From an uncultured Clostridia bacterium (lineage in GTDB: Bacteria > Bacillota > Clostridia > Christensenellales > UBA1242), in NCBI GenBank assembly GCA_934746515.1, contig CAKVFH010000001.1, positions 36,142 through 100,141 on the forward strand: a DNA stretch of 64,000 bases, in the 5' to 3' direction. A program made the position numbers and the translations under genes. Positions 1 to 64,000 of this stretch are shown in pieces. The notes under the pieces are model-generated. The model was given only the letters and a program-made list of their open reading frames with translations, made no database searches and was not told the origin of the DNA. The stretch's first letter is position 1; each line of letters begins with the position of its first letter.

Positions 1-3000
1 GAAATCTCATATTTCAAATATTCTTCAAAAGTCATTTTGAGCAAGAAAAACGCAAATGTCTTCGGAAATAATCTATATTCTATTGATATTTCAAGTTCTA
101 CACTTGCAAATGATATTGCAGCAATTGTTGGAACAACAGATTTTGTTTATAGTTTGGTTGGTGAAGGTGACAATCAAGTTTTGATTATCTCTTACCACAG
201 AGACCACTTGATTAAGTTGTTTGCTCACTGGACCGCAAAAACTTATACATATAGATTTTATTTTGCTTATGCAACAGATGACGATGAAAATGAAGTAAAC
301 AGCATTTCATATTCTTCAAATTCAGGCAAATATAACAACTATCAAATTGATAAGTTTGTTGATATTACAGTGTCTTATGCAGAAACAAGAACACTTTTGA
401 CATTTGAAGACTTTGCTTCGCTTATTGCAAGCAAAGGGGTTACAGTCACTGTTCCAGAGCATTATAAAGCTTATGCATGGTTTAGATGGTACAATAACTA
501 TGATAACTTATCAGAGAGCACCGACAGCAATCCTGACTATGCATTAAACTCTGAAGATTGGTATATTGATAGGGGATATTACAACTCTATTTCTAAAAAC
601 AGCAATTGGTATGATCCAACCTTTGCAAACGATGACTTGAGCGTTCTTGCAAGCGGAACATGCTTCTCTGATGTTTCATATATGGCAATTTCTGGTCTTA
701 CCCAAGAAGATTATGAAAGTTTCTATTATGATGAAGTTACAAGAACTGTTAAAAACAATTCATTTAAGTATACATCAGACTTGATTTCTAGCGACAAATT
801 TATTTCAGCTGGAACATCAATCACAAAGCATTTTGTTGGTGATGAAACATTCTTTATTTATTACATTAAAGATATTTACTATTCATCATTCTACGATTCA
901 GATGCTAACACCGTTACTGTTTATGATGAAAACAAAGTTGATAAAGGTCACTATTATGTAACAGAAACAACACCTGTTTCAAATTATCCACAACAAATTG
1001 TTGTTGCTGGTGCAAAATATGTGTTTGAATCTGTTGAAACAGCACTTTTCTATGCTTACTACATCAATGGTACAAACTATGTTACATATAACTACAAGAG
1101 CGGAAAGGTTTACACCGGAAGAATTACATCTCTTCTTTTGAAAGAAAATAACTTCTTGATTCATGACCTTGAAGCTGATCTCGTTTATGAAGGCTTAACA
1201 TACACATTCGTTAAAAATGACGAAACAACAAGATTCTATTACTACAAATCTGGCGAAAGCTATTTGACTTATGACATTGTCAACAAGAAATTGTATTCTG
1301 GCAATGATATCCTAACTCAAATTTCAAGCTATCAACTTTCTGCATTCCCACAATACATTGACTATGTTGATGGCAATAGATACACATACAATAGAATTGA
1401 TGAATCACTTAAGTTTGCTTATTATACAAGCGGTTCAAACACAATCACATTTGATTATGATTTGAGAGTTACATATAATGGCACTCACACAACAAAACAA
1501 ACTTCAAACTATGTGTTCTTGACAACAACAGACCAAAAATATCATCTTCAAAATCGTCTTTATGCTGAAGACTTTGACTGGACTTTTGATCCATTCACAG
1601 CAATTTCAGAAAATACGAGAGTTGCAAGTTGGTATAATATTATTGGTTGGTGGGTTAAGATTGATCAAACATATTCTTATGTAATAAATGATCAAACCTA
1701 TCATGTTGATGACGAACATATTGACACATCATACTTTAATAATTATGATTCAAGTTCAGGTTATTACTACCACGAATTTACTTATTCATATTCTAAATCT
1801 GACGGCACATTAGATTATGCGCACTCAAGATTCTATTACTACACTGGTGATGACGGAATTGTTCATTTCAGATTTACACATGCATTCACTGATATTTATG
1901 TTTATGCAGTTTATCAGATGGTTGAATATGATGTTAATCTTGAAATCAATGCGCCAGTTGGCTCAACATATTTTCACCAAGTTGCAATTAAAAACACAAC
2001 TATTTCAAAGGAAAACTTCGTTTTGTCAGCTGATGATTACAAAAAAGCAATCACTGATGAATTTAATGTAATCTACACATATTACTATTCAGATTTGGAA
2101 AACGGTTACATTTATTATAAATGCGGAAACAAGTTCCTTAACTATTGCATTGCGGAAGAAAAACTATATCATGGCGTGATTGACGAAAGCGCAAACATTG
2201 TTTCAGATGAAATCAATGACAAGACAATCATTTACGGCAATCAAATTAACTATTATGGTTCTTATGATTCAAACAATGCTTATGACACCTTGACAAGAAT
2301 TGATAATCCATTTGCTTACAATGAATATATTGGCGCAAGCGATTACAATGACCTTGTTACAAAAGGTGAGTATACATTAAACAGAAATGGACTTGTTGCT
2401 TACACTCCAAAATTGTTTGTTTATACTGATAGAGCTGATGCAAGATTTTTCTTCAACGATTTTGTTTACAACAGAAGCGTTACTGCTTATCAATCTTATG
2501 ATACAAACAATGTTTATTTGGTTGAAGATTTCGATGATGCTGTTGTTCAAGACAATGCAAACAATGTTACAAAAACAAACTACGCTTTAACTCAAATTCA
2601 AGACAACAATTTGATTGCATATTTAGCGCTTAATCAAGGATACAGATTGCTTGAAAATAACATTTCAGTTAGAAATGGTTCAAATCACAGTGTAATTTCG
2701 GGTGAAATTAAAAATAGAACAGAAAGATCTTATGTTGATGAAACCAATGGTCCATCAAGAGTTATTTATTATGAATATATTGCAAACGGAAAAGTTATTT
2801 ATACTTACACTGAAGAAGAGTATTACAATGCTGCAACTCAAATTTTAAGTTATAAATACATTATTTCGTTCCCAGCAATCTCTCAAGATTATGACATGAG
2901 CTGGAATGTCACAAGCTTAACCTACGATTCGCTTGACTATTCAACATCAGAAGAAAATTCAAGCTCACAAGGTTATGTTCAAAAGGGAACAGATGTTGAA

Positions 3001-6000
3001 GATACATTGGATGACCAAGTTCAACTCACCAAAAAGACTGCAGGACAATTCTATGGCAATACACAATTCATCACATTCTATCCTGCAATGAACACAAAGA
3101 ACAATTTCTTTGATCAATATGCTTATGAACTTGACTATGTTGATTCATATTTAAGTAGGATTGACTTGTCGTCAACAAACGGAAGATATACAACTCTTGC
3201 TGACAACGCACTTGTTTCAACATTCTTCACTCTTGAGTATTATCTTGACACTGCAACGCAATATCAAATTGATTTTAGAAACTTTATTGTGAAAGATGCG
3301 TCAGGCAATATCGTTAATCCTGTTGATTTGGTTGCAAACCCAACCTACAAAATTTTGATTGACAAACTCCACGCAAACCATGGCACAACATTTGCTGATT
3401 TCGAACCAGGAAATGAATATAACTATAATGTTGAAAAGGCATTCATTCTTGAATTTAATGGCCTTGAATATTACTTGTATTTGTGTCACTACACCTATGG
3501 CACACATGATTATTACACCTACATTTTGTGGGCAGATACATGTGTTAAAAATAGTGGTCTTAAAGTTTCAACAACTTTCACAGACATCAAACACAACACA
3601 ACATTCTCTTCAAGTATTGTTAATGGTTCAAATGATCTCTATAAGAGTGATGCAAGCGTTGGAACAACAATCACAAACACTTCAAAAGCTGGTGTTGCAA
3701 GCTATTCTGATTCAATGGATCAAGCAAATATTTATCCATCAGACATCAATTCTTATGTAATTCGTCCACATAACGGATATGTTATTAACACAATCACAAT
3801 CACTTATGGAAACGGACTTGCAAAAATCAACTTAAGAAGAGATGAAAATGGAAATGTAACAGGTATAGATTCATATTTATATGCAGGCAAGTATACCTAC
3901 AAATATACCTATACAAACGAAGGTTACATTGACTTTAATGGCAACACAGGTGAAAGACAAGATTACCCAACAGCAACTGAATATGATTCAGACAACGATC
4001 GTTATATCAACCAAATTTCAACCTGGATGTATTTGTTCCATGACTATGATTTCATTTCTTATGATTATAATGAAGCTACTGGTTATGTAACACTTCTTAT
4101 CTATGGTATTTATGGTGATTGTTCAATCGTTGCAACAGCTGAAAGCTATGTTTCATTCAGACTTGAAGCAAATGAACTCACAGACTTTTATGCTAAAGAC
4201 GCAGCAACCTACATTGAAAACAATTATTCAGACAGAGTTTATAAAAACTATATTCACAAACCAACAACTGTTGATGAATTTAACAACTATTTGACATTTG
4301 GTTTTGAATATTACATCGGCTTGGATGAAGATGATAACGACACCTACATCAATGGCTGGTCAAATGAAACTCTTGATAACACTGGAAAATTTGCTTATTC
4401 AAAAAATCAAATGTCAAGCTTTGTGTTCGGAAAATATATGGATGGCGAAACACCTGTATATTATTTGGAACTCATCTATATTGGAAAAGCAAAGATATTT
4501 GATGCTGGCGTCACATTTAGAACTGTAAACTATAACTATACTTATAGAATCACAGACTTCATGGTTGCAAATTTTGAAAATACTCAAAATTCTGGCAATA
4601 TTTTCACAACGAACACAACTTCTAACACAGACTTAAAAGTTGGTGATTCAACTCTTGTTGATGAGACTGCTTCAGCAGGCAAATCAAGCTATAAGTCAAT
4701 CTTTATCAATGATGTTAGAAAATTGTTCAAAAGCTCTGCGATTGACAACACAAACTATGGTGGCTACACCATGGCAAGATTCTTTGTTCAGCCAATGAGA
4801 AATAATGATGAAGACACAATCGGAACACTTGTTCATATTGATTCATACCTTTACACAAAAGGCAACAATGATGATAGACAAGCTCGTCTTGATCCACTTG
4901 CTGATAATTCTTGGTTCAATGGTCACACATTGTCAAGAATTAGACTTGATTATTATCAAGCTAACAGAGATGAAAACTTGACTCAAGTTACATACAAAGA
5001 GTTTGAAGGCAGAACAACTGAATATTTCTATGGTAACAGCTATGATATTTACTATACAGAAATTGAAGGTTACACACTTTACAAGTTTAACTATCTTGGA
5101 ACAGATTACTTCTTCGATTATGACGGAAACTTCTACACATATACAAATGCTGTTGATAAGCAAGATGGATACATCAGAACAAAAGTTGTAAATGGGGAAA
5201 CTAAAACAACTCTTCCTGACTCAATCAGAGTAAGCTATTCAAGAGCAGCTGGTTCAACTTATGGTGTGTTCAAGTTTACAATCATTGCAGACTCTAACAC
5301 ATTTAGAACAAACTTCATTAAGTTCTATTCAAAACAGAAATCTTTGGGAATTACTTATAAATTCAATAAACATGAATCTACAAGTCCTGCAAAAATTTCT
5401 GGAAGAGAATATTTGACAAATGGTTCAATTGAATCAAATGAAAGAACACAAAGTTTGTTCTTCAATGAAGTTACATTGCTTTCTGCAAACAACTATTCAA
5501 TGGTTGGTTACACATTCATGGGGTATTCGTCAGAAAATGATTGGTCAAACTTCTCACACTGGTCAAGAGTTGACAATTGGGCAATCGGCGCTGACACTGA
5601 TATCTTTAACATGGACACCAATTTGATTGGTAGAGCATTCTATAGCTATAACTTCTATATTGAAGCTATTCAATCGTTTAGCTCTGAACCAACATTTGTT
5701 TCTCACGAAACAATTGTCACAATTGATGGTGAAAATACAAATCCTTATGATTACAACTTCTACAATGTTTTGAAAGATCAAATCCATGATTCGCTATACT
5801 TCTACAACAATGTGAAATTGTATTCAGTTTGGAAAGCTAACAAATATAACATTGTGTTTGATATGAATGACTATTCAAATGTTAATCCATTAAACACAAC
5901 TGTTTCAAAAGGTTCAACAGAAGCTCAATTCAATGTTTTGAACACAAACAATGTTCAAATGAGCATTCTTAACACAGACCACTATGATGATCCATTCTAT

Positions 6001-9000
6001 TTCATTAACGACGCTACATATCAACAGGCTAATGAAAACTATGAAAATGGCTACACTGACGGCTATTATTACGATAGCACAAAAACAAGAATCAGTATGG
6101 TTGTTACATTCGATTCTAACGATTGGTATTTGGTTTATAACGGAAAGACATACAATCTTGAAGATATCTTGATTGATAGATATGGTTATTCATGGTATGG
6201 TTGGTTTGTTTCAACCGATGGCAAGCTCGATTCAAACTTTGCAAGATTCTTTAACACTGACGGCAAACTTAACTGGACAAGCGTTATTGCATCAAACAGA
6301 GTGATTGAATCAAGAACACTTGCTTCTAAAGATACTGTTGATGACAGCAATAGACTCAAATTCGATTACGATTGGATTTGCAAGACCACATTCGTTGAGC
6401 CAACATTCGATACATCTTATGAGTATCGCAAAAATAACACCGACAGAGTTGACACATTGCACAGACTTGACATTGAGTATTTGAAACTTGATGAGTCATA
6501 TAATGATGTTGACTTTGAATATACAAGAAATTACTTTAGAAACACAGAATTTGCTGGAACAAGTGAATATAGCGATGTTTATTACAATCACAATGTTTAC
6601 GGAAAGTTCAAACTCTATGCTGGTTGGCAGGCTAACACCTACACATTAGCGTATGATTATGGAACTTATGGTATTGACACTGGCAAAACCAACAAGACCG
6701 AAAATAATGATTTGATGCACAATGAAGTTGTTGTTAGTGGAAAGAGCATTTTGGCATCTGCTAAACAGCTCCGTGGAACAACATCTCCACTTCAATCAAA
6801 TTCAGGCGACTATAACACACTTATATTCGATGTTGAATACAATCCACAATATGTGACAAGAATTGGTTACACATTCATGGGTTGGAGACTTGGTTTGACA
6901 TCTGTCAATTCAGTTTCAGGATTTGCTATTGATAATTCCGATAACAGTGCTGTTACAATTGATGAAAAAGTTTCAATTGCAAGCAAGGGAAGCAAGATTT
7001 GCATCAACTATAACTCAATTATTATTGATGACGGATCTGAAACAACCGGTGTCACAACAAACTGTTATCTATACAGAGATATGTCAAATGTTGCTGGTTC
7101 TTCTGAAACTCTTGGTGCATTCGAAACCTTGGGTGACAGCGAGTCAGATTGCAATTCAACACTCAATCACTATGTTGGCATGTATGCAATGTGGAAAACA
7201 AACATCTACACTGTTAAACTTGATGTCAATGCATCAGCAAACGACACGACAACATCTAACTATTTCTTAACAAATTCGTTAGAAAGACAACCACTTGCTA
7301 GTGGAATTATTCCCGTTAATATTTATGTTATTTTTGATACTAATGTTTGGTATTATGAAACAACATCTAGCGGAATGGATTTGACAGATGTAATTCTGGA
7401 AAAATTCGGTTACTTCTTCCTTGGCTGGTATACTGATGCCGAAGCAAAAGAAGGCAGAAACATACTTTCTCAAGACACAATAAATAGTGCACATTACACT
7501 GATTTCTTGATGACTGGAACAGATTACAACTATACAAATTCATACAACACCTATCCTGATAGAATTGATGACTTTGATGTTTATATTCAAAATTCAGCAA
7601 GAACAACCGCTGTTAAGCGTTTGGCTAGCGCTCCACAAATGAGAGTTCTTGATTATGCACTCTTCAATCAATTCGTATTCAGAACTTATGGTGAAACCTC
7701 AACAAACTCAAATCTTTACACATTTGAGTCAAGACTAAAAACCGCATACTCAAAAGTAAATGGTTACACAATCACAAATGATGATAAAATGTTCACTTCA
7801 AATATTACTGATGAATATTCACTTGCATCAAGAAAAGGCAACTGGGTAGAAATCAGAAACTATAATGAATCAACAAAAACTGAAACAACAACATTTGAAA
7901 TCACCATTTATGCAAAGTGGCAGGGTATTGTTTATGAAATCAGCTTCAATGGAACATCATTCGAAGATGATAGCGGTATTGGAACAACCAAAGCTCAATA
8001 CATCACTGAAAAAAATGGTCAAACTTATAATTCAGATTCAGCAAACTGTTCGATTTATGTTATGTTTGATAGAAACCTTTATACTTCAAGTTATAACGAA
8101 ATCTGGCAAGTTGAAAGCGACTATTACGCACAAATTGCAGATAACGCAAATGATATTGAAGCAATTACTAAAGGTTTGCACTTAAATGAAATTATCAATA
8201 TTGATAGATATGGCTACACCTGGACGGGTTGGTATACAAGGGGGTATGAATACTTACCTGATCAGACATTTAATGAAGTAAGCATCAAGCATGCAACAAA
8301 CGGAACCAAATCTGAATCAATTCCTTCAGAAACTGGTGATACAAGAGTTCCAACTTATACAGTTGAACAAAATGACGGCACTAATTATTATGTTGGAAAA
8401 ATGCTTGAAACTGATAATGTTTATATGGAAACCGACGGCTTCAATCATAGATATTACAGTTCACTTATTGTTGATGGTCATGACTATTCACAAAAGACAT
8501 ATAGGTCTTCATACAGCACAAACTATGTTCCTATCACAAACTACAATAAAGCAAATTATGGAACAGCTGCATATACAAAATTCAGTTTTCCAATCTATTC
8601 AGATTTGCAAACATTTGAAACAAACAAGGAAGACAAAACTTTCACATTCACGCTTTATGCTGGTTGGGAAGCTAACACATATCAAGTTTATTATGAATCA
8701 AACAGCGACAGTAGTTATGATAACAATTGGCTTGATGGCGTAAATACTCACGGACTTCCTTATGTCAGCGGTGCAAAACTTCGTAGCGAATATAGCAATC
8801 TTGCAATTGGTTCTTCACCAGCTTACAAGATTACTGCATATAATGGCACACCATATTCAGCAACACTCCTATTCGACGGTGATTATGAAAATGGTGACAA
8901 CGAAGGTTATGTTGAATGCACAGCATGGCAAAGATTTGGCTACACATTCATTGGTTATAGCATGGGTCACGGAACCGCAACTGACACATCAAGTGCACAC

Positions 9001-22374: not shown

Positions 22375-22402
22375 CATGAATGAGTTTGTTTAAACTAAAG
22401 TA

Positions 22403-26302: not shown

Positions 26303-27037
26303 ATGGCATTTTACGATACTTTTGATGCAAATGGCGTTTTTATGTCAGCAGAAGATGAAGCTGATGTTCACTACAAAGGCTTATGGCACAAGGTTATAAG
26401 AGTTTGGCTTTATGACTTGCAGGGCAATATTTATTTGCGTGTAAAAAAACCAAGCAAAAAGTGCGATTTTATAAATGAACTTCACATTGAGTCAGGCGAA
26501 AGTGCGACAAGCTGTTTTGATAGGGGAATGTATGAGAAACTTGGAATTCACTTTCCAGCAACTTCAAACTTAATTCAAGTATGCAGCAAAAAAATTAAGA
26601 AACACAAAGTTTACTCTGATAATTCCGAGCTTAAAGATAACTACTTTTTGATTGATTATATTGGTGAGTTTGATGAAAGTACAAGTTTCTTTATTTTTAG
26701 TGATGACACCGACCACATTATAAAATGTAATGCAAAAGGTCTTTTGAATCTTGTTAAAAACAGAACTGGCGAGATATTGGCTTACAGAGTAGAACCAAAC
26801 GGCAAGGTTTCCGACCAAAAGGATTTCTTAAAAATCACTGATATTTATGAAGATGTCAACGAAGATTCTTACACAAAATATAGTTTCATTGTTAATGCAA
26901 TTGTAAATGAAGTTACAAAGGCAAATAAAGAAAAAATCGAAAATGAAAAAATTAGAAAACTTACTGAAAAAGTAAAGGAAAGAGAAGAAAAATTCAATTC
27001 TCATGCCGATGAAAATGAAGGCACAGATAAATATTAA
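26303..27037 (+). CDS. Nudix-fold-like protein with degenerate Nudix box and Lys/Glu-rich C-terminal tail
   Basis: 244 aa with an AGGTGG SD, starting 11 nt after the cysS stop. The N-terminus, HYKGLWHKVIRVWLYD...IYLRVKK, resembles the GLWHR...V.I pattern of Nudix/IDI-like proteins. The expected box reads GESATSCFDRGMYEKLG instead of G-x5-E-x7-REUxEExGU. Confidence 0.4.
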   Translation: MAFYDTFDANGVFMSAEDEADVHYKGLWHKVIRVWLYDLQGNIYLRVKKPSKKCDFINELHIESGESATSCFDRGMYEKLGIHFPATSNLIQVCSKKIKKHKVYSDNSELKDNYFLIDYIGEFDESTSFFIFSDDTDHIIKCNAKGLLNLVKNRTGEILAYRVEPNGKVSDQKDFLKITDIYEDVNEDSYTKYSFIVNAIVNEVTKANKEKIENEKIRKLTEKVKEREEKFNSHADENEGTDKY

Positions 27038-27106: not shown

Positions 27107-27192
27107 GCCGAAATGGCGAAATGGCAGACGCACAAGACTCAAAATCTTGCGAGGGCAACTTCATGTGGGTTCAAGTCCCACTTTCGGCACCA
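27107..27192 (+). tRNA. tRNA-Leu (anticodon CAA), class II with long variable arm, genomically encoded CCA
   Basis: Folded by hand:
- acceptor GCCGAAA / TTTCGGC (7 bp)
- D stem GCG / CGC with GG in the loop
- anticodon stem CAAGA / TCTTG with loop CU-CAA-AA
- 15-nt variable arm with a 4-bp stem
- T stem GTGGG / CCCAC with loop TTCAAGT
- discriminator A, then CCA. Confidence 0.9.
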
Positions 27193-27325: not shown

Positions 27326-27352
27326 TTTGAGTAGGAAATTTTGGATGAGATT

Positions 27353-56200: not shown

Positions 56201-59200
56201 TGTGCTGTAATAGTATGAATAGAATGTTGTGTGTTCTTGTGGATTTGCTTTTGAATAATGTCTCAGTGCTGTGATAGAACTATAAGTTTCTTTGTCAACA
56301 ACATAATACATATTGTCAAATTGATTGTTATCAAGATTTGCAAGTGTGTGTTTGAAAGTAACAGCAGAGAAGTCTGTGTATAGAGTTCCAGGGACTTTTC
56401 CTGTTTCATCGTGGCTAACAAACCCGTCAAGAATTTCAATATAGTAACCGTTATTAAATCCAGTAACAAGTTCCACATGCGATGTTGAGCCTTGAACATG
56501 ATAAACATCAAAGGCAAATATTGGATTGACATAAGGCAAACCATCTATATATCTAACACCAGGGAAACCTTGTGTTATGCTTGTTTTGTCTGTGTAATCA
56601 ATGTCAAAGTATGAGCCTTCGTCTGTGAGATAATCAAAAGGTGAATAATTCGTGCCTGAAGGAAGGCCATCTTTTGAAATACTTGGGACATTTAATTTTC
56701 TCTTTGAAATGAATGAAGAGAATGTGTTTGTTGCAACAACTTCACCAGAAACTGCATCATGTGAATATTTACCAAGTATTGAAATAATTTCAACGTTATT
56801 TATATTTGTTCCATAAAGTCGAGCATACCTGCTTGTGTCACCAACATAGGTTACAATTGAAGTGTTTTTAATTTTAACTTCAAGGAATTTTTCACGAACC
56901 TTTGCAGCAAATGCTGTGCCGTAAAGTGCGGCTTCTGTAATTTCAGCACCCACAACCAAATTTCCACTACCATCAACAGTTGCATAGTAGTATTTATAAG
57001 TTGTGTCGCCTAAAAGCTTCTTGGTAACATAATCGCGGTTATACAAAAGGTATTCATAATTGCCACCATCTTTTTGATAAACAATGTATCTTTGAGAATC
57101 ATAATCGAAACATGCTTGAACATAATATTTTGTATTCTTTCTTCTTTCAATTCTACCAGAAATGATAACTTGCTCTGTTGTATCAAGAGTGTAGTAAGCA
57201 TAGCATCTTGTGTTAATCATAACTTCATCTTCAACTTTATCATCATTAAGTCTGTATGAACGAAGCAAATCAAAGTTCGAAAATGCATAATATTGAACAA
57301 CAGGTCTAAACTCAAATCTATCAGAAGAAGAGTAATAGTTGTAGGTAAATTCTGTAACGGAGTTTGACATAGCAAAAAGTCCGTCGTTAAATTCAAGTTT
57401 TTTGAAAAGAGTTGAGTTATTTTTGTCATAGAAGAAGATTGAAGATGTTAATTTATCTTCAACATAAGGTGTTGCATTGACACCAGTATCTTTTATTGAC
57501 AAATCGTCATTAAAAATTGTAACTGTTGCATTTACTGCATTAGAAATTCTAGCAACCAAGTCGCCATTAGTTTTTCTGATTTCACGAGTAGATGCATTAT
57601 ATTTAAAGGTTAAATTTGCATTATTTTTAACATTTTGATAAGGTACAAAATGATAAGAGTCTGTTGCAGTTAGTGGAGCAGGAATGTCTGATCTAACAAA
57701 AACTTCGCCTGTGTTTGAGTCGCAGAAATAGAATTGTCCTTCATAATTAAAAATATAATTAAGTGCAACTGAAGTTGATTCAAGCAAGAATTTTCCTTCA
57801 GGTTCAGTAGTTTCAACCTTTGAAATTTTTGTTACATCATTTGCAGCATTTTCTGTTGTTTCATATTTATAATAGCTACCTTTTTCATTGATGATATAGT
57901 TTGTTCCATTAAAGAAAATAGATGCTTTGTCAATATAGTTTCCATAAGCATATTGAACATTCATGAAAGAGTCTTTGTTTACATCACCAAACATTTGCTT
58001 GTAGGTTATTGGGTCGCCGGCACTATTTGTTAGCATTTGAAGAACTTTTCTTGAACCATTTGTAGATTGTTCAATAAAGCAATAAGCATCAGCGGTTTCA
58101 CCTTGTCCAGTTGCTGCAACATACATTGTTACAGGAGTTGGTTCAGAAGTATCAACGCTTGTTGATGAATAACAAATATACAAGCTGTATGCTGTCAAGA
58201 CATCATAATAAACAGGATCATTTGCCAAACTATCAGAATATCTAATTGGCAAATCAATATAGTATGTTGATGAACCATTAAGAAGAAATTCATATTTTGC
58301 TTCAGATATTGTTGGTGTTGAAACAATGTTTGAAACATTACCAAATACACGGCTTCCAGATTCAGTTGACAAGTTTGAAGAAGGGTATAAATCAATAATT
58401 TGATTGTTATCTTTTCTCTTTAATGATTGTTTGCCGTTTTCTCCACTGCCACCACTGCCTTGCATGAATGAAGCATAGTTGATAACAACTTCAGTTGGTC
58501 TATAGTATTCACCTTTTTGAGTTTGTTTTGTTACAGTAACAAATATTTTTGAAGGATTTGCTAAATCAGGATCCGTTTTAAGCAAGTATCTCTCACCATC
58601 AATTTTTACATTTTTACTTCCAAATGAAAAGTAATAAAAATTGCCATTAAATTTAACTTTGTTATAGTCATCACTGCTAATATCAACATAATTTGGCTTA
58701 CTTAAATCATTTGATATGATGAATTTTTCAATAAGTTTGAGTTCGTTATTGATTCCATCTCCGTCAGATAAATCTGAAAGATCGCCAATTGTTGTGTTTG
58801 AAGTTGAGAAATACTTTGTAACATAGGTGTAACTTGATCTGGTGTCAACATAAGAAACTTCAAAGCTTTGAACTTTGTCTGCTTGAGTTGCTCTGATATA
58901 TTTTGTTTGAAGAGTAACCATTTGGCCATTTGATTCAGAAGTATACTCTTGAACAACCAAAACTTCTTTGCTGACGCTCAATCTTTCAACATAATAGAAG
59001 CAACTTACATCAAGTGAAGCTTTAACAAGATTATAGAATGGTAAACATTTCTTTTGGTTTGCTGTAAGTGTATTTTGATCAGCTGTTGCATAAGTTTCAA
59101 TTTGTTTGCCAGAGAAAATACTTACCCCAATAAGATCTTTAAAATTAGAGATAGGGTAATACATTATAAGTGTGGTGATAGAATTTGTATCATCATATCT

Positions 59201-62200: not shown

Positions 62201-64000
62201 AACTGTTTCGCCTGAACCATCACTCTTGATTTTGTAAACTTTGAATGAAACAACAAGGGAAGTATCATCATCATATTTTGAAGATAACACGCTCATGCTT
62301 GTTAAATCCAAAACATTATATGCAAAGCTTACTTTTGCAGCTGTTACACGATTTCCAGCTTCATCGTAAACAACATCGTCTTTAATGTAGAACATTTCAC
62401 GACTAAGGTTGTCTTTCAAAAATTGTGAAGTTGTTGGAGCTAGGTAATATTTTTTTCCATAAAGTGTAACGATTTTTGCAATCATGTTTTTATCATTAAC
62501 AACACGGTTTTGCAAAACACGAAGATTTTCAGTTTTTTCAAGGTTTGTGTCAGTAAGGCGAGTTAAATAATCACCATAGAAACGATATTCATCGGTTCCA
62601 TCAGCGTAAGAAAACTTGATATATTGACCAAATTCAAGTCCTTCAAAAATAAAGCTTGCTTTGTCTAGTTCACCAGCTTGTCCGCTAATTGCGTTTTTGC
62701 TTGCGTCATATTTTTGCCACTTAACACCTTTAAGTTCTGAATTTCCAGCTGACAAAATTTTATCAGCATCAAAAATTGTGCCTTTAAGTGTAAAGTTGTC
62801 AACTTTAACGAAGTTAGCATAGAATTTTGTGTTGTTATATTCTCTTGCAGAACAAACGCGAAGTGTTCCAACTCTGCCATCAACTCCACTAGCCACTGAA
62901 CCAGAAACTGTTTCAAAAGCACCACTATATGTGTCAAGATAGTCATTGATTTTATTTGAGTCAAATGTGAAAAGTGCATTAAATGCTTTTCCTTTTGAGC
63001 TTCCAAAAATACAGGTATAGTCGTTATCAAAGTCTTCAAACATAAAATCGAGTGAAGCATAATTGTTGTATTGTCTTGCTTGATAGAAAGAATCAATATT
63101 GTTAAGAGCTAACGAGTTTTTAGCTTTTACTGCATTTGACCATGATTGGAAAGCATAATCTTTTGCAACGATACTGGTTGAACCAGTTTTTGTGTGATCT
63201 GTAAAGCGTCTTTGAATGGTAACCATTTTGCCGGTTGGGAAATAACCAGTGCAAGATGTGACATTAGTTTGGCCAGTAACTTCAGAAATTGTTTGGTTTA
63301 CCATGTAGAAATAGTCATTGTTTGTTCCAAGTCTATAATTTGATTTTGTTGCATCAGCTTCAACATCAAGATAAGCATAACCATCATCAACACCATTTAA
63401 GGAGTTGATTTCAAAAGTCATTTTGTTTGCACCAAAATAGAGTGGTGTGGTTGTTAATGATTCACCACGAGCAACATTGGTTTTATCCGTTTGGTTTGTA
63501 TAGGTGTAAGAGAGAACATCGGCATTATAGCCAGCGCTTAAATTTGCTTTCATGTTTGGATTTGGTCTAGCTTTAACTGTCATGCTTCTTGTTGTTGAAC
63601 CATTTCCAAGTCTTGGAGAAAAACGAAGATAAAGAGAATGATCGCTTGTTGTGGTGTTTGCAGACACAAAATCCTTTTTATCATTTCTGTGGCAAAGAGA
63701 AAACATAGAACTAGCATCTTTCCAATTTTCTGAATTGCTTGTTCTAAAGTAGAATGAAAAAGCACTCGTATCAACTTCTATGCGTTTTTCTTTACCATTA
63801 TATCTTCCAGAATTTCCGCCAGTAAAAGATATAGTTCCGCTGTAGTTGATATGGAGCTGATATGAAATTCCGTCATAAGTGAAAATATAATCAGGGAATG
63901 AAACATCAGTTGCACCATTAGCCATTGCATCTGAACCGTTTTGGTCGTAATTTTTGCGCAAAGCTAAATATTCGCTATCCGAAGTTGAAACATCGTAAAA
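32231..64000 (-). CDS. Giant membrane-anchored surface protein, 5'-partial (continues right of window); 10,589 codons in window
   Basis: The reading frame is uninterrupted from the window edge (64000) to the TAG at 32233-32231. The 13 codons upstream of the track's TTG (63961) are open (FYDVSTSDSEYLA), so the start is outside the window. The product is Asn/Tyr/Thr/Ser/Asp-rich. It carries scattered degenerate [YF]-x-F-x-G-[WFY]-[YWF] modules, for example GYRIEGWY at 54317-54355 and YVFAGWWLK at 44415-44445. A C-terminal TM hairpin is present. Confidence 0.9.
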   Translation of the reverse strand, partial: FYDVSTSDSEYLALRKNYDQNGSDAMANGATDVSFPDYIFTYDGISYQLHINYSGTISFTGGNSGRYNGKEKRIEVDTSAFSFYFRTSNSENWKDASSMFSLCHRNDKKDFVSANTTTSDHSLYLRFSPRLGNGSTTRSMTVKARPNPNMKANLSAGYNADVLSYTYTNQTDKTNVARGESLTTTPLYFGANKMTFEINSLNGVDDGYAYLDVEADATKSNYRLGTNNDYFYMVNQTISEVTGQTNVTSCTGYFPTGKMVTIQRRFTDHTKTGSTSIVAKDYAFQSWSNAVKAKNSLALNNIDSFYQARQYNNYASLDFMFEDFDNDYTCIFGSSKGKAFNALFTFDSNKINDYLDTYSGAFETVSGSVASGVDGRVGTLRVCSAREYNNTKFYANFVKVDNFTLKGTIFDADKILSAGNSELKGVKWQKYDASKNAISGQAGELDKASFIFEGLEFGQYIKFSYADGTDEYRFYGDYLTRLTDTNLEKTENLRVLQNRVVNDKNMIAKIVTLYGKKYYLAPTTSQFLKDNLSREMFYIKDDVVYDEAGNRVTAAKVSFAYNVLDLTSMSVLSSKYDDDTSLVVSFKVYKIKSDGSGETVDASEVGVSYEVIKSVTTTIDALGCVKTTVYVSVVMPSNYSIDKYNLVTDNNTYAPTVYANSNSLDTNGKNGTIIKFIDEVDGEIIPCYYFFNTETIASTKITSSNDRSYFKLKDTGEEFVYYYKKLNGTNSYNYMYQSLTTHNMICAVYGTDGSGKVNASASSYTLLKLDKIRDQDNVQSQVAMTRTGYLYSDISGLTEEQLQQLQSSEDCLYYNGSVYFNTQENISFLNFFYFVDQDYAYTGKFELNAGKENEDHTTGTITRYYNEIIFDNNKSYLQSLISDTPFVDYNKSNNSFSLFGPTKTGVNANGEVLDKFIYGITVEQTLNLSLTDFELNLSSDVLRKTATRVYIENYDGDNLNDDEKIYSFYYFNKELYYYKGKIYSTISSDVNQEDWFLVWNSLESEKNQQNYNSISFAISSNFSEMIIGRYGVTINGITYFVNKDQSTGKYKLYVTSELVNEVDVFKELGFAELKSCDIANRKIIFSRYYFGFFYVNPVKNNIYTDIACTKVWNYSDTYVFNREDDGTATIKLSNYFKTRLKIDLYQTTISRSYGSGCAAFNQNLIGKEHYTTGNSLNALQPFDSTVLTNTTGTAQSNSKTISLYVLDSSLDLYTSGSKLFSSVHYEISMDADDKITLSFGSTYDTRLTSHASESSTGSIVTIYGTPGSDHATDDIVAKKFVYGGKTSDSFKYLVISDGKKANQIYNTYFSSSMTSISLSAYESSMKLDALLYNDEYLYPKAIPNFDASNAITGFRNSNDGLNFDLYYDSNYNSQFKVANYYIKNDYMKTLNAEADYNVFFSTTSPVYINGNLRMYKPFVDALMHTSYRVSDDKLVNNGYVVNDNGKYYFAMQKTLSMLENGIIQIEKNVYLNPDDLIIGKVDLYQDENCGTAYTGSLKALYYDGNILIYDTDTSKEANDSTSQVYSCKYEGGHYKLKFAADIKIKQRKTVSGSGSGDWTDEVTSDNTESTCYLYYGIQSYTNAGITYNFSSKPIAKSETVRYDDTNSITTLIMYYPISNFKDLIGVSIFSGKQIETYATADQNTLTANQKKCLPFYNLVKASLDVSCFYYVERLSVSKEVLVVQEYTSESNGQMVTLQTKYIRATQADKVQSFEVSYVDTRSSYTYVTKYFSTSNTTIGDLSDLSDGDGINNELKLIEKFIISNDLSKPNYVDISSDDYNKVKFNGNFYYFSFGSKNVKIDGERYLLKTDPDLANPSKIFVTVTKQTQKGEYYRPTEVVINYASFMQGSGGSGENGKQSLKRKDNNQIIDLYPSSNLSTESGSRVFGNVSNIVSTPTISEAKYEFLLNGSSTYYIDLPIRYSDSLANDPVYYDVLTAYSLYICYSSTSVDTSEPTPVTMYVAATGQGETADAYCFIEQSTNGSRKVLQMLTNSAGDPITYKQMFGDVNKDSFMNVQYAYGNYIDKASIFFNGTNYIINEKGSYYKYETTENAANDVTKISKVETTEPEGKFLLESTSVALNYIFNYEGQFYFCDSNTGEVFVRSDIPAPLTATDSYHFVPYQNVKNNANLTFKYNASTREIRKTNGDLVARISNAVNATVTIFNDDLSIKDTGVNATPYVEDKLTSSIFFYDKNNSTLFKKLEFNDGLFAMSNSVTEFTYNYYSSSDRFEFRPVVQYYAFSNFDLLRSYRLNDDKVEDEVMINTRCYAYYTLDTTEQVIISGRIERRKNTKYYVQACFDYDSQRYIVYQKDGGNYEYLLYNRDYVTKKLLGDTTYKYYYATVDGSGNLVVGAEITEAALYGTAFAAKVREKFLEVKIKNTSIVTYVGDTSRYARLYGTNINNVEIISILGKYSHDAVSGEVVATNTFSSFISKRKLNVPSISKDGLPSGTNYSPFDYLTDEGSYFDIDYTDKTSITQGFPGVRYIDGLPYVNPIFAFDVYHVQGSTSHVELVTGFNNGYYIEILDGFVSHDETGKVPGTLYTDFSAVTFKHTLANLDNNQFDNMYYVVDKETYSSITALRHYSKANPQEHTTFYSYYYSTETDKDSKYYILFEEYTNLTTLEKSFYKGYIKAGESFYKVYSDTLKINECAMNDNDSNIYASDTYTVKMQNGVETKIYTDNIYIIKNGKLAKLTEDDAVIWQSSVYEIKDAPFFDIHTYVQDETTGELILTSDMIGESDNTICNGLVDLDTNVFSNSANVDFSNVVISGLTTGYKVPFDALDSTSLQGYWLESAINIYNEKLDPDKQVYLEVGVDGAILLANPLINFKNETYYRFKEWRIYSKDSAEYMVYNSEATESDSFTDRFNSICRFKSTVSGYYLVLPVYERLYSVSIGMETTTATPNIGGSINITSTSNSTSIDENDHVEDRFLLQYTKENLEVTDTNMFLLFTGNFVGNSPVFAKIGLASDYKTNANAVSILVKEVENSIYKLYFYKGETYHSCLSVDLSEYSSLKAGVLSLVRVVKANSLAYKLNAPGSVVDQVYITYNYKSFRKVSTFFATKKYNTTTHVYDTMMIGMDGYIYEDDSTNEDYMITDILHYRGTVYSVNKNQVYTKKTNPQKFTVANDKLYTFKENSLELHRNIDYYFSESNSFADIIRAGFNYTTKNEDVYYDETYYNSNNNLSSGEFYLADDGKTVNTSIEYKTTYYDRDDTITITAIANSGYRIEGWYLASYDEEYGWVVSDKKVNEQFETNFSDEIIRTEFETNNSSAKSFEIETKGLYPNGSSFTRKYSITNQYYDEFTLRFTNSGKVVPASLKSEYCALYANIGQSRTNPKFVRVYMKGGDREDLYYDEDFRFPVSVSDFGSSKSATTITSLWNSYYIGYMNNYDAIDVVYSFTTSNGIPVVSEEWQIVGSGKRQSTKTTYTQNGQEVYAIFVYNNTTLSYDITYYRSTKGNNFEIDGNQPNVLKINKLHSNIRVVAKFIETFQTYVLCEDEADSGVSVEAIYYFNEDSSKSQVRSNSSGQLMNDDSLVSGTANRNFLGGAVESYGLTKNYTNYNFIINDEEDKSKQISLLNGYYDKSKAGKAGFDAEGFSTSESYLMHYYDEESIVNFQKLSKLSTYTSLTDYRKVKNGTKYNLNEKGKGSFERNAFAMFRTEDKTLTLKNYYFDVGTTLYVLVRLQKGNELTIHSLGLNSNYTINFLIEPNKQLVNESSDTNLKYTYYLLKVTYNNDLEQTEGLTTTMGNENPEYVLHPDKARLVTNQVLSGNNLSLYDSIFDLKVSYSELDNATTDISKNNYLRFKYGTDKFDVKIAFDRNTSLVISNAFAFSKMMAEIVFYNYYQLGAFDNLAPYETRNASQATAYTYKIGNNTFKFSKKDDVSKADFIDEIRKYFVFVFENAYNEQKSNSLEKNFSKALSNINNSLKAFLNKDNALDASAYGLYKSIYELGYYSTVSGNVYINDTLINSILNIEVNKKTLKDTLGLTDYTVSVLWTLENKKFQSIGQFVSQMNQIIYAATSIKNSIRISSATYTSSYYKPYKLSLNSEVSYTDYVKLPSSNFSSIGELYIISIKRLVQYKIDASKLTSNTTGMIYNSTFFAGDGKEEVITKKVFNYSMPALSGKTNYINLSSIKIYTFSVSTAIVDSFSSDNLNADKESDIFITNGAKSANFTQNPYYILDDTIYVGGGIKTSFADYNYIGSAKKLDRSDDPLNYVAGYEKVQQFNLEYYQDGTSDLYAEDQITAGKLNYNSYGSMLFAENTVALWGGLKTYYSGDYSSFGYISQYDKQVLKTTRASTSNAGYALNSGDNYFKIDNGEYVVCRAYDNENGVYTGEYYIYTEDYKTVYIGTTTKVTPEYLEDFEITKAYSFAGWYAQTYNEDNSVWSDLELLSTDMTKPLVTASAANTNIIAMFVALTEFSFSYNKNEFNVSFRDSIDSRNQEIAINESSYIMVEPGDEWIDADSNLYFTDNRGINKYTYSASDWDGGKLKSNKLSSQPGKLLYKYDENMATISGWFFYSSAPVMSINPVGGYRVNDTYQVRIDDNASKNIEFDNSLTYYQTKNNQSAAECSFIDWSMTSNTFVKFPLVRITLDGASGDVDARRSCTVKLSAKKVIFTEFVISNFTYNPDGTAIRDCEFVLYSIKDNGDIDKVFFISDYEENNEGVINTALLDDYLNDTLDEKGSYVSPHYSLNRDIAHNVLYHSDSSQATYKVYGWFDAELNGKLVAAIVYNKTHEELVRNAETNSEAAPPTFKNWKTNESKASNNSTSMLQPTDMVKAVATLKSLFNDTASIDVTSDKFSSVLYANYYYTADTVINTNCSLDENNQVIYQSIARDVTSLVSFKNEFKSINDANSDLVEDDTDMIIPMEIVYYMNYVHYDTEANISSNGILEYNLTNTRMDWGGVGSREFDNHLGDANFKKTITYKFKIDNNSVSGDRKYLSIQVKDKYYVVYDKGKASYYQFVGFYNLVGDKETLLTTNMYYDFLGILPAGTIIARYIKITPLTISITSGGTANVSVNSFVTTEMLGGFVTDAQKDQYTAYKSFLSIKHVNTISEFDGSDYKNYSSTDPTTSDIPHNINYCLYNTSLTVGVVASTGYKLSFAGYRLDTAIALRAVSAGEYYDSTKTYYITQSRKFTSTDFDTYFDDNNQLKSGVNLYYYPDPVYEPFEKDTDPAKTIASGSTISFSGGSTIATISKYREAVAFKFSFEDAYIVTIKQYSLSSLSDSAVATLYTEGAYTRVSETRMSDSDISSLNSEDFIYNRDNIEKMTASIPQQNSFYIYYFSHGSQSLIGVYENGKEIASASKFGSRTYEIDGETYTVYELFYRDVKPAGLPGDVSLEIRFTSSSKLATIIAGMDSTQYSGNNGGVNAKDNSVFKVGNGEGEMKHEFRDSRYYYTLAKIDSEIQYLPENSTVTNEISINSGSIVSYDIHVKDVGTNYAFVYYYYYKKCLPTKLDGNWYSFVYDNQTYYYYFNESNDETKNSAYTEKDLNSTKFSKKVAWHSKDDNSYQNDENYIYVEQVISTKSDAAIAVSSDMVSNADVMKDGTTLLKIYAFFSEVITVRVYKSLDPNDIHPDDYAFYNQKSNEFTSYFDAKIEYKISLSDSTYRSAFIYSDNYDADKGLYYTDVTIARGTNLYITPYINPAVRNRYMSIEGTHIFATLGLEGNNTYLNKDKEGRFVITSNTIGTIGSPANISMRISYYSSYTSTIEKTIEGNKDDGNVGAESKLTDLLKFISVESTVEYATINDRNIALYYTDQNFLSYYEESQLNIGNGDRAFKNIYYYNTSSLTKTYPIHRADFATRHTLKTSIMNGVDAEKLGIVFYGWYLNGYLYSTDREVSVNVSKLGSTESDGINGFVMIHDNDNKIVALCALQRDTAGGNDLYYTFTFAGETRTISRKAVLENITGELSGSLGDYGYVYIPSDNMKFTASYGYYTEVTYDTTPNSTYPTGNRENILVSSIISGNLLKYASHLTTDNPSTIYSKDEFAQFAKYMLDNDGTIGDKDLKNGYTISNILNSYTIADNYYSNPDVAVYARSGTNLYLTAGHTLGFRFTGFTYYISRIQVTVDGKDISYRIIKDQIDDPNFVYRQTLKLTDSADVSYLAISGDIITSNITVIANYENVYDINTFVTTTDDFGYLGPTSNYNANNKVGGTVKVKAYMETSPSTKNEGTFFSKSYNCLQITVNPTSGYTTAGIFINGIYLSVSNLGFDTYGLSGEVTINLQRLFSGEGGGSEFDVTDTIDGTDRTFSAFENNINIEVKFVKNIEVSVRMAVNDIISKSVLSSEYGIVKGGQFDISIALENIYTTIKYSVGQRVELKKGSLYNSKIKYYTSPTSGTEYVFDENDWDKVLYTGTAIPQYYFKGEKTLYYDSMSVITSSDKLTRSIWTGSGTELCTKFIVPFGTKITLKIANKKAYGSNSRLFHFSGWYVYDNNTEIIKNNSKITYSDELTFFAAKDINFNSHSDSSIDILAKYSSYESSYVESPLFSAELIGNNIDTSLSVESIRTIIQNNVLMYNGNKYVFAGWWLKVNDANVADSVRYLMVSDNFDDYPNNLIQTDSLIARFILVKTITIELPNTTDASNANEVISSGSVRSNMYTSYNYVKTNVRDDRILAISTITKDRVQVKIEVLVGTYFGFETAVGSYGSDTATTITPQDGFYYIINSINYERTKDSSLPQNKFPFLSSQVNNFSFNYRNSLQATRDANSDRLSTSAGYIDGKDVNLAQIKKAGKVYDVNSNYNILSAVDNFYTFSFITTTVREDGSLATGEYGGSINYSSIKVKTTGGAEKGDNSSYVFNSTYSIVHSEVSVDSEYVFAGYYVNGQYVDDSFNRKSFDIHLNAASDVVIEARFLKLVTVYVDMRDNGSVTHNKNLSFDVNVSNNYHTNVIKYTIGNTIYSSSSDIPGIDAEAANGTFTITVPYGTKLEFDSNIANSRWYWNSISVNTLMSSNSSISFYVNEDKSLIINYNDVSTIASSNTDLVYQVYSLDGNKVTSTSYGSGGTTFLNTPQTVSIDSKLYIFTGWYRYMSGRLAYLVSATPGSGGVPIEKGTYWARYVEYKNIDVKYSDMSSIHLKGQVTMPYYYVQDSTDNSILGAKFIATDQAVIRMSAPVMSTYYISEIGVENDFKFLDDSLTVESDTPVTGISLPVYGNSIRDSVTLSTNVNEQPNYNLKFGKTGPSMRGYYDNILNDISEDKIVITVNDSKNSLKVTVKPIAPDKVFENDVNSLITVTASDITQDNINNTQKYANEIDYVNIGGTIYYLFEGNYYETLVTYQVTRGGTSPENYYYFISNYTTIGSPGFVTYVGSNKYFLSEDNLTVYVFKNPHTLTTDELNAIADTPVISAVVGKYFSMYTQLTVSLRAEYRNDSFSGFMISYDGKTSYKLYSVEEVGFSFTFTVMSDVYIYAVFGEAKQLSKPNANNGNYGSGEDYGAGTVYTLEFQAGDDEYIDKIRSGSNAMIDFTYDQNSQNKDLFTITMATGSSAEIDLDRSVIVTDSFGQRFFTKVVLKVTTNLAALGVESSYTVTTRPITILHISVTENDASISGYDGSSLNMFYPANYLSEQFSSNFGKYDGKNFVTNARILSYLKDVANYMRVDSSEILISDFVTDPAIKDSKFSNTMLVNKSTGNIQFMDGFSNFDIIKIGGVSAKSAHIDGSFTSAGVWNGENIAYVNTSNMNDDKNNNITYNYKTRGIIRIYIHPAYYNSSNGEYSTELTNSVLTAGVGDDVFALNPFISASDDVTISNYVYDSDEMRTIGGSGTARGVYYYDITYQFAKPLSLVFNSAYLSFDYYCFKNKTSNSYTNLSDYMNTIDNRDVQGTSLGTNDSALSISYGEFMQLFNDSNSISDDLPTLVLHCVGKENVKKTTLELEYTNATLGLDIQIGSAGSTTTYTVLENVRWNEPDSFGKDYGVTNAIDLYPTDETITDSLTISYCTYKSENGKYYFEFIYGQNLIAQQARFNIKLNDFREQDKSSGTDATKLYLYINDSLPYALSCENAYCENKTQEVMFEIQSSIGAIVSWQLGGSFANENIVKIQTQKYYKILYSTNGLSGTIDAPFTLTGDGTAINFGSGTDYANRYAYTFVRDGESVNIKYNILDASKIPVMYVKENALNGVMRKRTDLRYDVCVYNYLTFTSAQARNLSPGTLMTTLSSISSYISNSDLISYTFLPRSNTSFLANFNADANANNKFIFAIIAADNSSSFTIDNGVGNLINTSNDLNSGYNVVAKIIGIGSSISVKQLNTSSQKSYSGYEIHEHEGFLYTEENTETYPSQLYSMNNFDVDNTFNLFAYANRLNADLIYPKQYLFLVKTKEKRHDVLLANKKQTAVPFVDIREVDYIYKTDVDNISSEGSKYFDNLGNVTDVEANAVKDIKIKTTTGKTVHAMSFVFNNKLYYFCDGKIYLESVKDALDDEFVEFNNMEVEYDPRSEGYYFDVDYSDYSITVYELLYLILGEKSEAMVGGTKFESSFANNFTVNENDSFKTMIEKTVDTMPASFKSWYNTSKSIYTLSNGILQYNYQSENYSYAEYREETGPVITLEDGKEITNFVLVGARKIETYYMEDSLARQEKISDYTKKIKKIDMDIFIKNKGLNYVGRDEEIAALEKEKTRLQEKLQDFKNSYTKKTIKRKIVVNSNEDALLEISGDDNSYIFNTDFEDGDSSNVNNIEIKYNYMAAETNKITKYTYNGDEYYLIDGSLYKDYFNPDSWYADVYYKYAIFGSNRFKNRKVACDTSAGTYLYKFIDRFTNILREVYYYKGKFYNNYSGGVYSNEYQFSVTVSDITCIGKTFNFNSSSIETIDKYNYVKIDGTQFYIGSNLKLYSSFPFNETSMVKVNSLETTKIYDEDTYKYMKLHNYYVYPTFIQLGVVKYDIPTFVNKDSSNNPIDPYVLYAQSTDPNDFIKLVLPDCNDVSSKARIYGSDQDGNQGTEYTNYTFSDKFRVNTDYYKTSDNGGTNIIKIYKNITYNKKKYIANVGAINVTGNTQVIPYQYDNGDGTNTSIYFVITQNDAGNITSNMYSDPANFNSSTLIKNSLCIFEGMSYFVRRIDNLGLSTIQVNIASKNDAVYSYRNVDRYTTPSNNQLSLASSQANITSIRAKVYAGYYLKGFLLVPDFVSTGSTYLHYILTSGGNIFDGLQGFEYYSSFNLLKFISVDYECIDNSTNGKVSYESDAKGNISAICYDINLPINGNFTIFAVYAPVMYTIGVTKVDLSSIKNKDDVSILTNNTQPDGTIREGLFSQLYDENSKPEDSTSAGSVRGNMLVEHNGFAMITARPTNGNSYLGYSLAKENENQMTSVRTINTTLKITDETDQRYKDVKTKLFDDSYSISSDYNYSKSLSVVRKYEGGSSNLLNAANYTYFMNQSRTDNGTTDKSKIKILGSGVDQYVKFPEDNNTQKNYIFFGGFTNNLGIYVFFNAISYTLTIELNETERGIYNAEDGSKSEADSYIAYTERYIEEYEKTTNKTWENPAHTYNTTIYGDRNNSTIYDKYFSYYLDDEDYANAVTSDGINDYSFIANIASQGTGDSAGAVETRAYTYKDVSGDDRLVYTLFDNYGTLITAEMEQPSIRSIYKKFMMATPSPILNSMIDFTLSKAAGFLVYKKNSDGQYYIPALARKEVTGGTEMTSAYATSAGDSKQFEIYKDDYGIWVVQSFKYYNIQPKDKLSKTGDQLSEENYSNKITYENKVEKVENYAYLVIPYNQGGSENYVEFNSSFLEENHNPAAGNSCGGKTIYANENFVYTIDFSAAKLDTPADDIFNVKKIKSTDILFSSTGLAYIQISGKSYVVAGRLAKNGEKYINDKSKYELNYVTSLIKKANDPLDSDYELAQEYLRIIVYKTSVDETASKHGFYNITSTNITPGITDKSKFVDYIGTDSTSGEKLYKLKEKLFTISVGGYMIDSSQFTQLSNKITATFKNTEGVEKTFLSSIKFETSTSSIGIVTSITLTLKIYYEDGSLPEVIINQNPALTTAEKKRQDISVANLQRIGIVVDYTYGNDKNALVYSPTTIAERNGTRYDSNITGENDANYIGRGKEANGFFQNLYGGGYSYENGKYFQMPNLNVKVSLIYAYTLKAVNPTVKTVVGNNETGNISMLSRSGASESNPTSIYSTSNVNGFSKIFGRVMSKDEENSENRMIESYSTYFSFIYKSYNLYVINDGQMVLDLLEFIFENTSNNDTRVTATKYYSYISTYNPLSYIQLQMDYLFDDANRSSSFYKYSTFYDFAIGAVNLILNRNSTKADIVSEAKYYIANLPRKYDSRYDDSTTKFLKVSQIDVNALSRTAVSTNFISNHIKQTDLVVSVIEMKERYSQQYFQAGRVGAIANAWNGIKKFFTGKESKPRQDAFGIKAYKYYAPVKTAFTCTVGTPTFTVSDGHVGNALSFNFANADKSVKDQATKFIDDVVSLEHPMAPMATMYQASSNRVDNYLATSTASAAFAAKDFYSSKDKIEAMTPTVTICEDPNLRLPTRFFNLNPLDYKTQYDKVVDTIMVIAYIATAITFAVSQITPIGWIADIAIGLAAVGAGVFLYSTVERIGSDVSKYEAQKALSGVILESRAGLFKQMFGIDTDNNLVQFNRVTEYEIDKMVRDAINSVYK
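32432..32569 (-). other. Two adjacent predicted transmembrane helices (membrane hairpin) 66 aa from the ORF2 C-terminus
   Basis: The two helices are VVDTIMVIAYIATAITFAVSQIT and PIGWIADIAIGLAAVGAGVFLYS, separated by no loop of significant length. These are the only long hydrophobic runs I saw in the in-window part of ORF2. Confidence 0.65.
38120..38340 (-). other. Isolated Lys/Glu-rich, probably helical/coiled-coil segment inside ORF2
   Basis: The sequence is MEDSLARQEKISDYTKKIKKIDMDIFIKNKGLNYVGRDEEIAALEKEKTRLQEKLQDFKNSYTKKTIKRK. This composition is unlike the surrounding N/Y/T/S-rich sequence. Confidence 0.5.

Follow-up and report, generated by a model that had tools for sequence, protein, structure and literature searches.

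Giant surface proteins of bacteria are usually built as long arrays of recognisable repeats. Closest to the present case are the proteins of 10,000-30,000 amino acids (aa) with Listeria-Bacteroides repeats that have been described for Clostridia from mammalian gut metagenomes (bioRxiv 10.1101/2023.11.21.568195), the Ebh of Staphylococcus aureus, a protein of 1.1 MDa drawn with both a secretion signal and a transmembrane (TM) domain (PMC4856396), and the Giant1-5 of Apilactobacillus kunkeei, i.e. clustered extracellular proteins of 3,000-8,000 aa (PMC12863079). The locus analysed here is a stretch of 64,000 nucleotides from an uncultured Clostridia bacterium (contig CAKVFH010000001.1), designated hereafter as the window, that is occupied for the most part by two giant genes, named A and B. 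These are two intact chromosomal genes kept by selection, coding for apparently unrelated megadalton proteins that are most likely located at the cell surface. Giant surface proteins of such a size are already known in gut Clostridia; gene A fits the repeat-array picture, which it extends by a strongly diverged member found in a gut lineage not yet cultured, whereas gene B, the more unusual of the two, breaks that picture.

The window has a G+C content of 33%. Its frame 0 of the forward strand is stop-free from base 1 to the stop codon at 22372-22374, which gives 7,457 codons (gene A; 1-22374, + strand), and one frame of the reverse strand is stop-free from base 64000 to the stop codon at 32231-32233, which gives 10,589 codons (gene B; 32231-64000, - strand). 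The two frames together account for 84.6% of the window and run towards each other from both sides of an island of 9.8 kb that contains, among others, the genes for cysteinyl-tRNA synthetase (CysRS), a tRNA and a NUDIX hydrolase; the original prediction, which had described two giant stop-free frames filling ~85% of the window, running off both its edges and facing each other across a small housekeeping island, is confirmed in all these respects. The remaining four frames are closed within 106-482 codons and, with the 0.075 stops per codon expected from the base composition of the window, the chance of such stop-free runs is ~1e-254 for A and ~1e-360 for B. Both frames are still open 5' of the TTG codons picked as starts by the program listing the open reading frames (ORFs). 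The full length of gene A is 12,312 aa in the public calls of two assemblies with contigs extending upstream, and that of gene B is 10,675 aa (~1.2 MDa) in the public call on the Hadza contig NODE_112 of ERZ15245508, which is 100% identical to the window. The true starts are thus situated outside the window, by ~4,855 codons for A and ~86 codons for B, and the proteins do exceed 7,457 and 10,589 aa, as had been expected. A and B, comprising together ~69 kb of coding DNA, are therefore real and intact genes that are truncated by the edges of the window.

Look-ups of exact protein sequences, namely of P0001 (a public call of A) and of two proteins from the island, led to the same locus in five independent gut-metagenome assemblies with 98.7-100% identity. 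Identity to the window is 100% for two of them, the Hadza contig L005 and the Logan contig L006; it exceeds 99.9% for the contigs L001-L004 (from two assemblies) and amounts to 98.7% for L009, which represents a further strain. The comparison of the window with L009 yielded for gene A a ratio of non-synonymous to synonymous substitution rates (dN/dS) of 0.087 over 7,272 codons, the values for its housekeeping neighbours being 0.03-0.10; on gene A, purifying selection has the same strength as on CysRS. For gene B, the sole comparison possible was that with strains >99.9% identical, revealing 3-4 synonymous and 2 non-synonymous changes, and its open frame and position are kept across species. 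It could be argued that frames of this size result from faulty assembly, through collapsed repeats or chimeras, or belong to pseudogenes in decay, since every dataset is a short-read metagenome and the public assemblies do break the giants (by N-gaps in both L009 and L010, by the changed frame of L007 and by a call from an internal Met on scaffold_247). The breaks, however, fall at scaffold gaps and not at stop codons, and the frames are open in all the species examined. There are no N bases in the window and no tandem DNA repeats inside A or B, and the dispersed DNA repeats present in the giants are only 30-67 nt long and 60-83% identical, encoding the GYxWxGW motif; a collapsed-repeat misassembly is therefore unlikely. 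Together with the identical and nearly identical contigs, the conserved synteny and the dN/dS of gene A, this makes the artefact explanation extremely improbable, including the chimeras, collapsed repeats and pseudogenes that the original prediction had contemplated.

It should be pointed out here that both genes are difficult to recognise in public records. With N-run scaffold gaps at positions 2056-2155 of L009 and 9897-9906 of L010, gene callers give A as a protein of 6,575 aa (P0001) and an ortholog of B as two proteins of 5,484 and 5,013 aa, and a local frame change at positions 4375-4400 of L007 splits the ortholog of A into 1,465 and 6,975 aa. On scaffold_247 of ERZ28615125, which is 115 kb long, gene B is called as 10,331 aa from an internal Met (window codon 259; 63224-63226), this being a truncation because the residues upstream are conserved with the ortholog P0006. 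The full-length products of 12,312 and 10,675 aa are absent from the protein-search results; scaffold gaps and gene callers thus fragment giant genes in public catalogues and hide them from protein databases.

Concerning related species, the nearest species representatives found by CysRS in a GTDB scan share 60-73% identity with the enzyme of the window. Nearly all of them are labelled as uncultured Clostridia, with one each assigned to Eubacteriales, Clostridiales and Thermoanaerobacterales, and the stated sources are human (Hadza), goat and roe deer. In their loci, giant open frames extend into the island at one end or at both, and the order A, oxidoreductase, CysRS, p244, ..., NUDIX, p661, B—the island genes being described below—was traced by tblastn in L010, L015, L016, L018, L019 and L020. 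The question of whether the giant pair occurs at the same locus in related genomes, left by the original prediction, can thus be answered positively for at least six related species. The orthologs of A and B are just 24-31% identical, compared with 67-73% for CysRS and 72-89% for NUDIX. The alignments are collinear—A with P0002 (60% identity over 7,030 columns), A with P0003 (28% over 4,599 columns) and B with P0005 (33% over 5,356 columns)—and the orthologs, with identities of 25-60%, maintain stop-free frames for thousands of codons. Since the low identity of the orthologs is combined with their collinearity at a conserved locus, the giant pair is an old, positionally fixed and fast-evolving feature of the lineage.

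As far as gene A is concerned, its part present in the window can be divided into three segments. The first one (aa 1-1790 of the window part; 1-5370, + strand) is a non-repeat part that shares 67% identity with the ORF preceding P0002 in L007 and for which no family match was found. It is followed by an array of ~27 divergent Flg_new-like modules (aa 1791-6418; 5371-19254, + strand) and by a C-terminal non-repeat region (aa 6419-7457; 19255-22371, + strand), conserved in the positional orthologs and lacking an anchor motif, so that >1,000 aa of unannotated sequence flank the array on each side. The self-comparison of A by BLAST revealed divergent repeats of 22-35% identity covering aa ~1800-6100, and an iterated hidden Markov model (HMM) delimited 27 modules of ~80 aa at aa 2013-6312, with the array extending over ~4,600 aa. 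The core of the module is FD...R.GY.F.GW (the GYxFxGW motif), its consensus being ...VTFDSNNW...DRYGYTFLGWY..., and A thus exhibits the repeated module of ~70-80 aa with the G-Y-x-F-x-G-W core by which the family is recognised. At a higher level, superunits of ~300 aa follow one another without interruption through the whole segment of aa 1791-6418, as seen with jackhmmer using a 391-aa segment.

The window part of A scores 19.4 bits (E 0.0011) with the Pfam family Flg_new (PF09479), the gathering cut-off of which is 27 bits. With isolated modules, PF09479 is the commonest Pfam family (11 of the 22 modules), all the matches being sub-threshold (best E 0.003). The tiles of A had no match in NCBIfam. 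The cut-off is exceeded by collinear or positional orthologs, i.e. by P0003 (39.5 bits; named InlB B-repeat-containing protein by NCBI), L021 (42.4 bits) and L016 (29.6 bits), and the ortholog L013 with its 26.6 bits is found just below it. Judged from these profiles, gene A appears to encode an extremely divergent Listeria-Bacteroides or InlB B-repeat (Flg_new) array, and the Flg_new family suggested originally seems to be correct in the case of A, with sub-threshold modules in A itself and three orthologs over the gathering threshold. The AlphaFold2 (AF2) model of aa 4830-5220, based on 29 paralogs plus orthologs, is beta-rich with a mean predicted local distance difference test (pLDDT) value of 66; in the superunit model, the 10-residue blocks between residues 131 and 280 reach pLDDT values of ~72-93. 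The GYxFxGWY core of the A-module profile could also be aligned to the InlB B-repeat of PDB 2y5p, albeit weakly (E 0.14, 21 residues). Compared with the giants of West-Roberts et al., gene A shares the origin in gut Clostridia, the length of >10,000 aa and the same type of repeat, its positional orthologs passing the Pfam threshold; it differs from them by modules so divergent that A remains at 19.4 versus 27 bits and by its superunits of ~300 aa. As to the more distant L021 (MGYG-HGUT-04512; CysRS identity 60%), its giant frame is located upstream of cysS (L021:2-7510) and was missed by tblastn with the C-terminal 3,400 aa of A, the positional ortholog having either diverged beyond BLAST or been replaced.

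Gene B represents a different case. All its tiles, searched against Pfam and NCBIfam (E 0.01) and against PDB sequences (E 0.05), produced only two sub-threshold Pfam matches, one of them with Flg_new_2 (17.9 bits, E 0.003); the orthologs of B had no Pfam match and the profiles of two conserved blocks retrieved nothing significant from PDB. The A-module HMM recognised in B at most seven weak sites (E 0.004-0.5), iteration from which gave no further copies of the module, and no array of Flg_new modules was found by Pfam, the A-module HMM or hhalign of 131 tiles. The self-similarity of B is indistinguishable from that of a locally shuffled control, with the exception of two faint signals: the main one is an internal duplication at aa ~6100-7130 (42611-45703, - strand; offset ~500-600 aa, E ~1e-5), in which several isolated F.GW motifs are also present, and the fainter one matches aa ~950-1046 with aa 8359-8808. 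Neither hydropathy nor the spacing of Trp and of aromatic residues showed a clear domain period in autocorrelation. With the profile of the conserved C-terminal 900 aa (32234-34933, - strand; 56% mean column identity over three species), only 23 relatives, mostly fragments, were retrieved among 1.84 billion cluster representatives; no relatives were seen in the GTDB scan with this profile and in the JGI metagenome scan with a conserved block of B. B belongs to a family that is hardly represented among public proteins and has no annotated domain. Its conserved block of aa 2301-3100 (54701-57100, - strand; 61% mean column identity over three species) bears the motifs GFPGVxFIDGLPYVNPIFAFDVYH, DIHTYxQDExTG, YYRFKEWRVY and NIGGSINI, has no relative in PDB or Pfam and may be considered a candidate for the functional core.

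Both ends of B deserve attention. Close to the C-terminus there is a hydrophobic hairpin (aa 10477-10526; 32423-32572, - strand), consisting of two adjacent hydrophobic, Gly/Ala-rich segments and followed by a tail of 63 aa (32234-32422, - strand); the hairpin and the tail are conserved in P0004, P0005, L016 and L018, and more weakly in L019 and L020. At the N-terminal side, the ortholog P0006 starts with a classical lipoprotein signal peptide (...LILVIGVFASIFLAGC) with a lipobox (...SLILVIGVFASIFLAGC); residue 133 of P0006 aligns with residue 8 of the window part of B, the lipoprotein signal being located ~107 residues before. The protein is rich in Asn, Thr, Tyr, Ser and Asp and poor in Cys, and it is acidic overall with an isoelectric point (pI) of 4.9. 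Calculated for blocks of 500 aa, the pI is 4.5-5.6 along the chain and rises to 8.1 only in the final block of this calculation (aa 10001-10500). An arrangement of the Ebh type, i.e. an N-terminal signal together with a C-terminal anchor, is thus present in B, with the signal read in the ortholog P0006, and B resembles Ebh in its size, export signal, C-terminal membrane anchor and huge acidic ectodomain. Unlike Ebh, however, B and its orthologs do not possess the FIVAR, GA and DUF1542 repeats (Pfam) and share no sequence homology with it; there is a lipobox instead of YSIRK and the anchor is a two-segment Gly/Ala-rich hairpin. With regard to the Giant1-5, these surface giants occupy much of the small genome of a Firmicute and show rapid diversification (PMC12863079), in which they are similar to A and B. 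Their genes are consecutive and Giant1-4 have an N-terminal beta-solenoid (PMC12863079), whereas A and B are apparently unrelated, converge on a housekeeping island and have no detected similarity to solenoids or serine-rich repeats.

The surface location, proposed already in the original prediction together with adhesion, is the best reading of the above results and is regarded here as probable, with the export, the surface exposure and the role in adhesion, coat or scaffold being deduced for both proteins from their sequences. The window part of A is acidic, too (pI 4.5). The neighbours p661 and p268 also have export signals, which supports the surface topology of B. Protein B would be exported by the Sec pathway via its N-terminal lipoprotein signal peptide, as suggested by one ortholog, and would be kept tethered by the conserved C-terminal hairpin, so that ~10,000 acidic residues, enriched in the beta-forming ones, might be exposed outside the cell, as their composition and charge suggest. 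A and B, possibly with the membrane-anchored p661, probably form long fibres or a coat; such a structure could mediate attachment to the host, a particle or other cells, or it could shield or scaffold the envelope. An adhesion or coat function is favoured because a fast divergence between species is accompanied by a strong constraint within species, because modules of the Flg_new type are present in surface proteins already known and because the products of the p661 and p268 genes are exported. The pair offers a well-delimited target for structure prediction, for metaproteomics and, in the longer term, for work with cultures on attachment or protection in the gut.

Several observations weigh against this assignment. 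The N-termini of A and B of this organism lie outside the window, and the signal peptide of B comes from a single ortholog with 31-35% identity. The window part of A contains no TM segment, LPXTG motif or cell-wall-binding domain, and no binding domain was found in either protein. The hairpin, if it consists of two helices, would place the tail of B outside and not inside, which makes the topology tentative. Concerning the structures, Foldseek of the A model against PDB gave no match with E<1, a multi-module query with floppy linkers being poorly suited to a target of 74 residues, and the AF2 model of the C-terminal 900 aa of B, based on an alignment of three sequences, is unusable (pLDDT 37.8).

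The original prediction considered A and B as a paralogous system with related repeat vocabularies. An origin of two repeat adhesins by duplication would agree with both of them being giant, acidic, rich in Asn, Thr, Tyr and Ser and convergently oriented, as well as with the handful of F.GW(Y) sites and the sub-threshold Flg_new_2 match (E 0.003) in B. BLAST, however, detected no match between A and B at E<1e-3, all the 131 tile profiles of B remained below 50% hhalign probability with the A module, and the single alignment inspected proved to be a 7-residue match of F.GW. As the weak sites of B, moreover, recruit no more copies on iteration and its self-similarity equals that of the shuffled control, a common origin is quite improbable; this part of the prediction is not supported, and A and B seem to be unrelated, without any detectable homology. 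It has been considered, too, that the giants are not adhesins but envelope scaffolds or shields, with B tethered at both ends like Ebh and masking the surface sterically. In line with this are the Ebh-like topology of B, the within-species purifying selection on A matching that of housekeeping genes and the position of the pair, fixed across species beside core genes and not in a variable island; the title of Cheng et al. (2014), as cited in PMC4856396, presents Ebh itself as determining the size of the cell and its resistance to complement. B is, however, not related in sequence to the Ebh modules, and the fast divergence of the pair (24-31% versus 67-73% for CysRS) is more typical of environment-facing proteins. 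Adhesion and scaffolding are, moreover, not mutually exclusive, and a purely scaffolding role is regarded as rather unlikely.

Polymorphic toxins are numerous among the giant proteins of bacteria, and giant genes have been linked to predation by West-Roberts et al. (bioRxiv 10.1101/2023.11.21.568195), so A and B might also be contact-dependent proteins for the delivery of toxins or effectors, or products of mobile elements or phages. Toxin, Rhs/YD, LXG, peptidase and secretion domains are, however, absent from all the tiles and orthologs searched, and Rhs/YD, RTX, BIg and cadherin repeats as well as a C-terminal toxin domain were not found in A and B with Pfam and NCBIfam. B ends in a membrane hairpin and not in a variable toxin tip, its two segments of 3,000 aa (aa 5001-8000 against phages and aa 7590-10589 against plasmids) gave no match, and both genes are situated among CysRS, tRNA and NUDIX in conserved synteny; this explanation is thus very improbable. 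The tile searches with Pfam and NCBIfam revealed no domains of nonribosomal peptide synthetases or polyketide synthases (condensation, adenylation, ketosynthase, acyltransferase and carrier) in any tile, in accordance with the absence of such motifs, and of peptidase, toxin and secretion-machinery ones, noted originally. The LPxTG motif does not occur anywhere in the window parts of A and B, nor does a related motif in their last 300 aa, and a sortase-anchored adhesin is not supported on this basis.

Returning to the surface location as the preferred reading, B might even found a lineage-restricted family of non-repetitive megadalton proteins tethered at both ends, by the N-terminal lipid and the C-terminal hairpin, with A, B and p661 forming a conserved three-part surface apparatus at cysS. 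This wider idea is proposed just tentatively and is rather doubtful at present. If true, the apparatus would be central to how this lineage of gut Clostridia contacts its surroundings, and the ~10,000 unique residues of B would represent many distinct folds and not a repeat stalk. The protein p661 (661 aa; 30005-31990, - strand) combines a signal peptide with a TM anchor at its C-terminus and matches no known family; in all six relatives showing both genes (33-46% identity), its own follows directly downstream of B, in the same orientation, and p661 may be a candidate functional partner of B. A 13-bp palindromic hairpin with A/T-run flanks, positioned between the stop codon of B and p661 (32174-32205), is a possible terminator of B.

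The island itself covers, on its + strand, the genes for a flavin/pyridine-nucleotide oxidoreductase of 739 aa (22480-24699), which is the conserved neighbour of A, CysRS (24879-26291; 60-73% identical to its counterparts in metagenome-assembled genomes of uncultured Clostridia), the conserved hypothetical protein p244 of 244 aa (26303-27037), tRNA-Leu(CAA) (27107-27192), the predicted lipoprotein p268 of 268 aa (27341-28147), a HAD-family hydrolase (28493-29161) and the NUDIX hydrolase (29333-29872). The protein p244 is cytosolic and without a match in Pfam or NCBIfam, and it is 61-82% identical in most relatives and 55% in L008. The signal peptide of p268 ends with the lipobox FMFVSC, and the protein has Gly/Asn-rich repeats and is conserved in some relatives, not in all; its sole match is a sub-threshold one, with the signal region of NigD-family lipoproteins. 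Just 3' of tRNA-Leu, a second palindromic hairpin with flanking T/A runs (27227-27247), called on both strands, is likely to be a terminator. The oxidoreductase gene, finally, contains an imperfect direct repeat of 46 nt (23327-23372 and 24329-24374), the two copies of which are 74% identical, as well as 2.2 tandem copies of a 19-nt unit (23702-23742).

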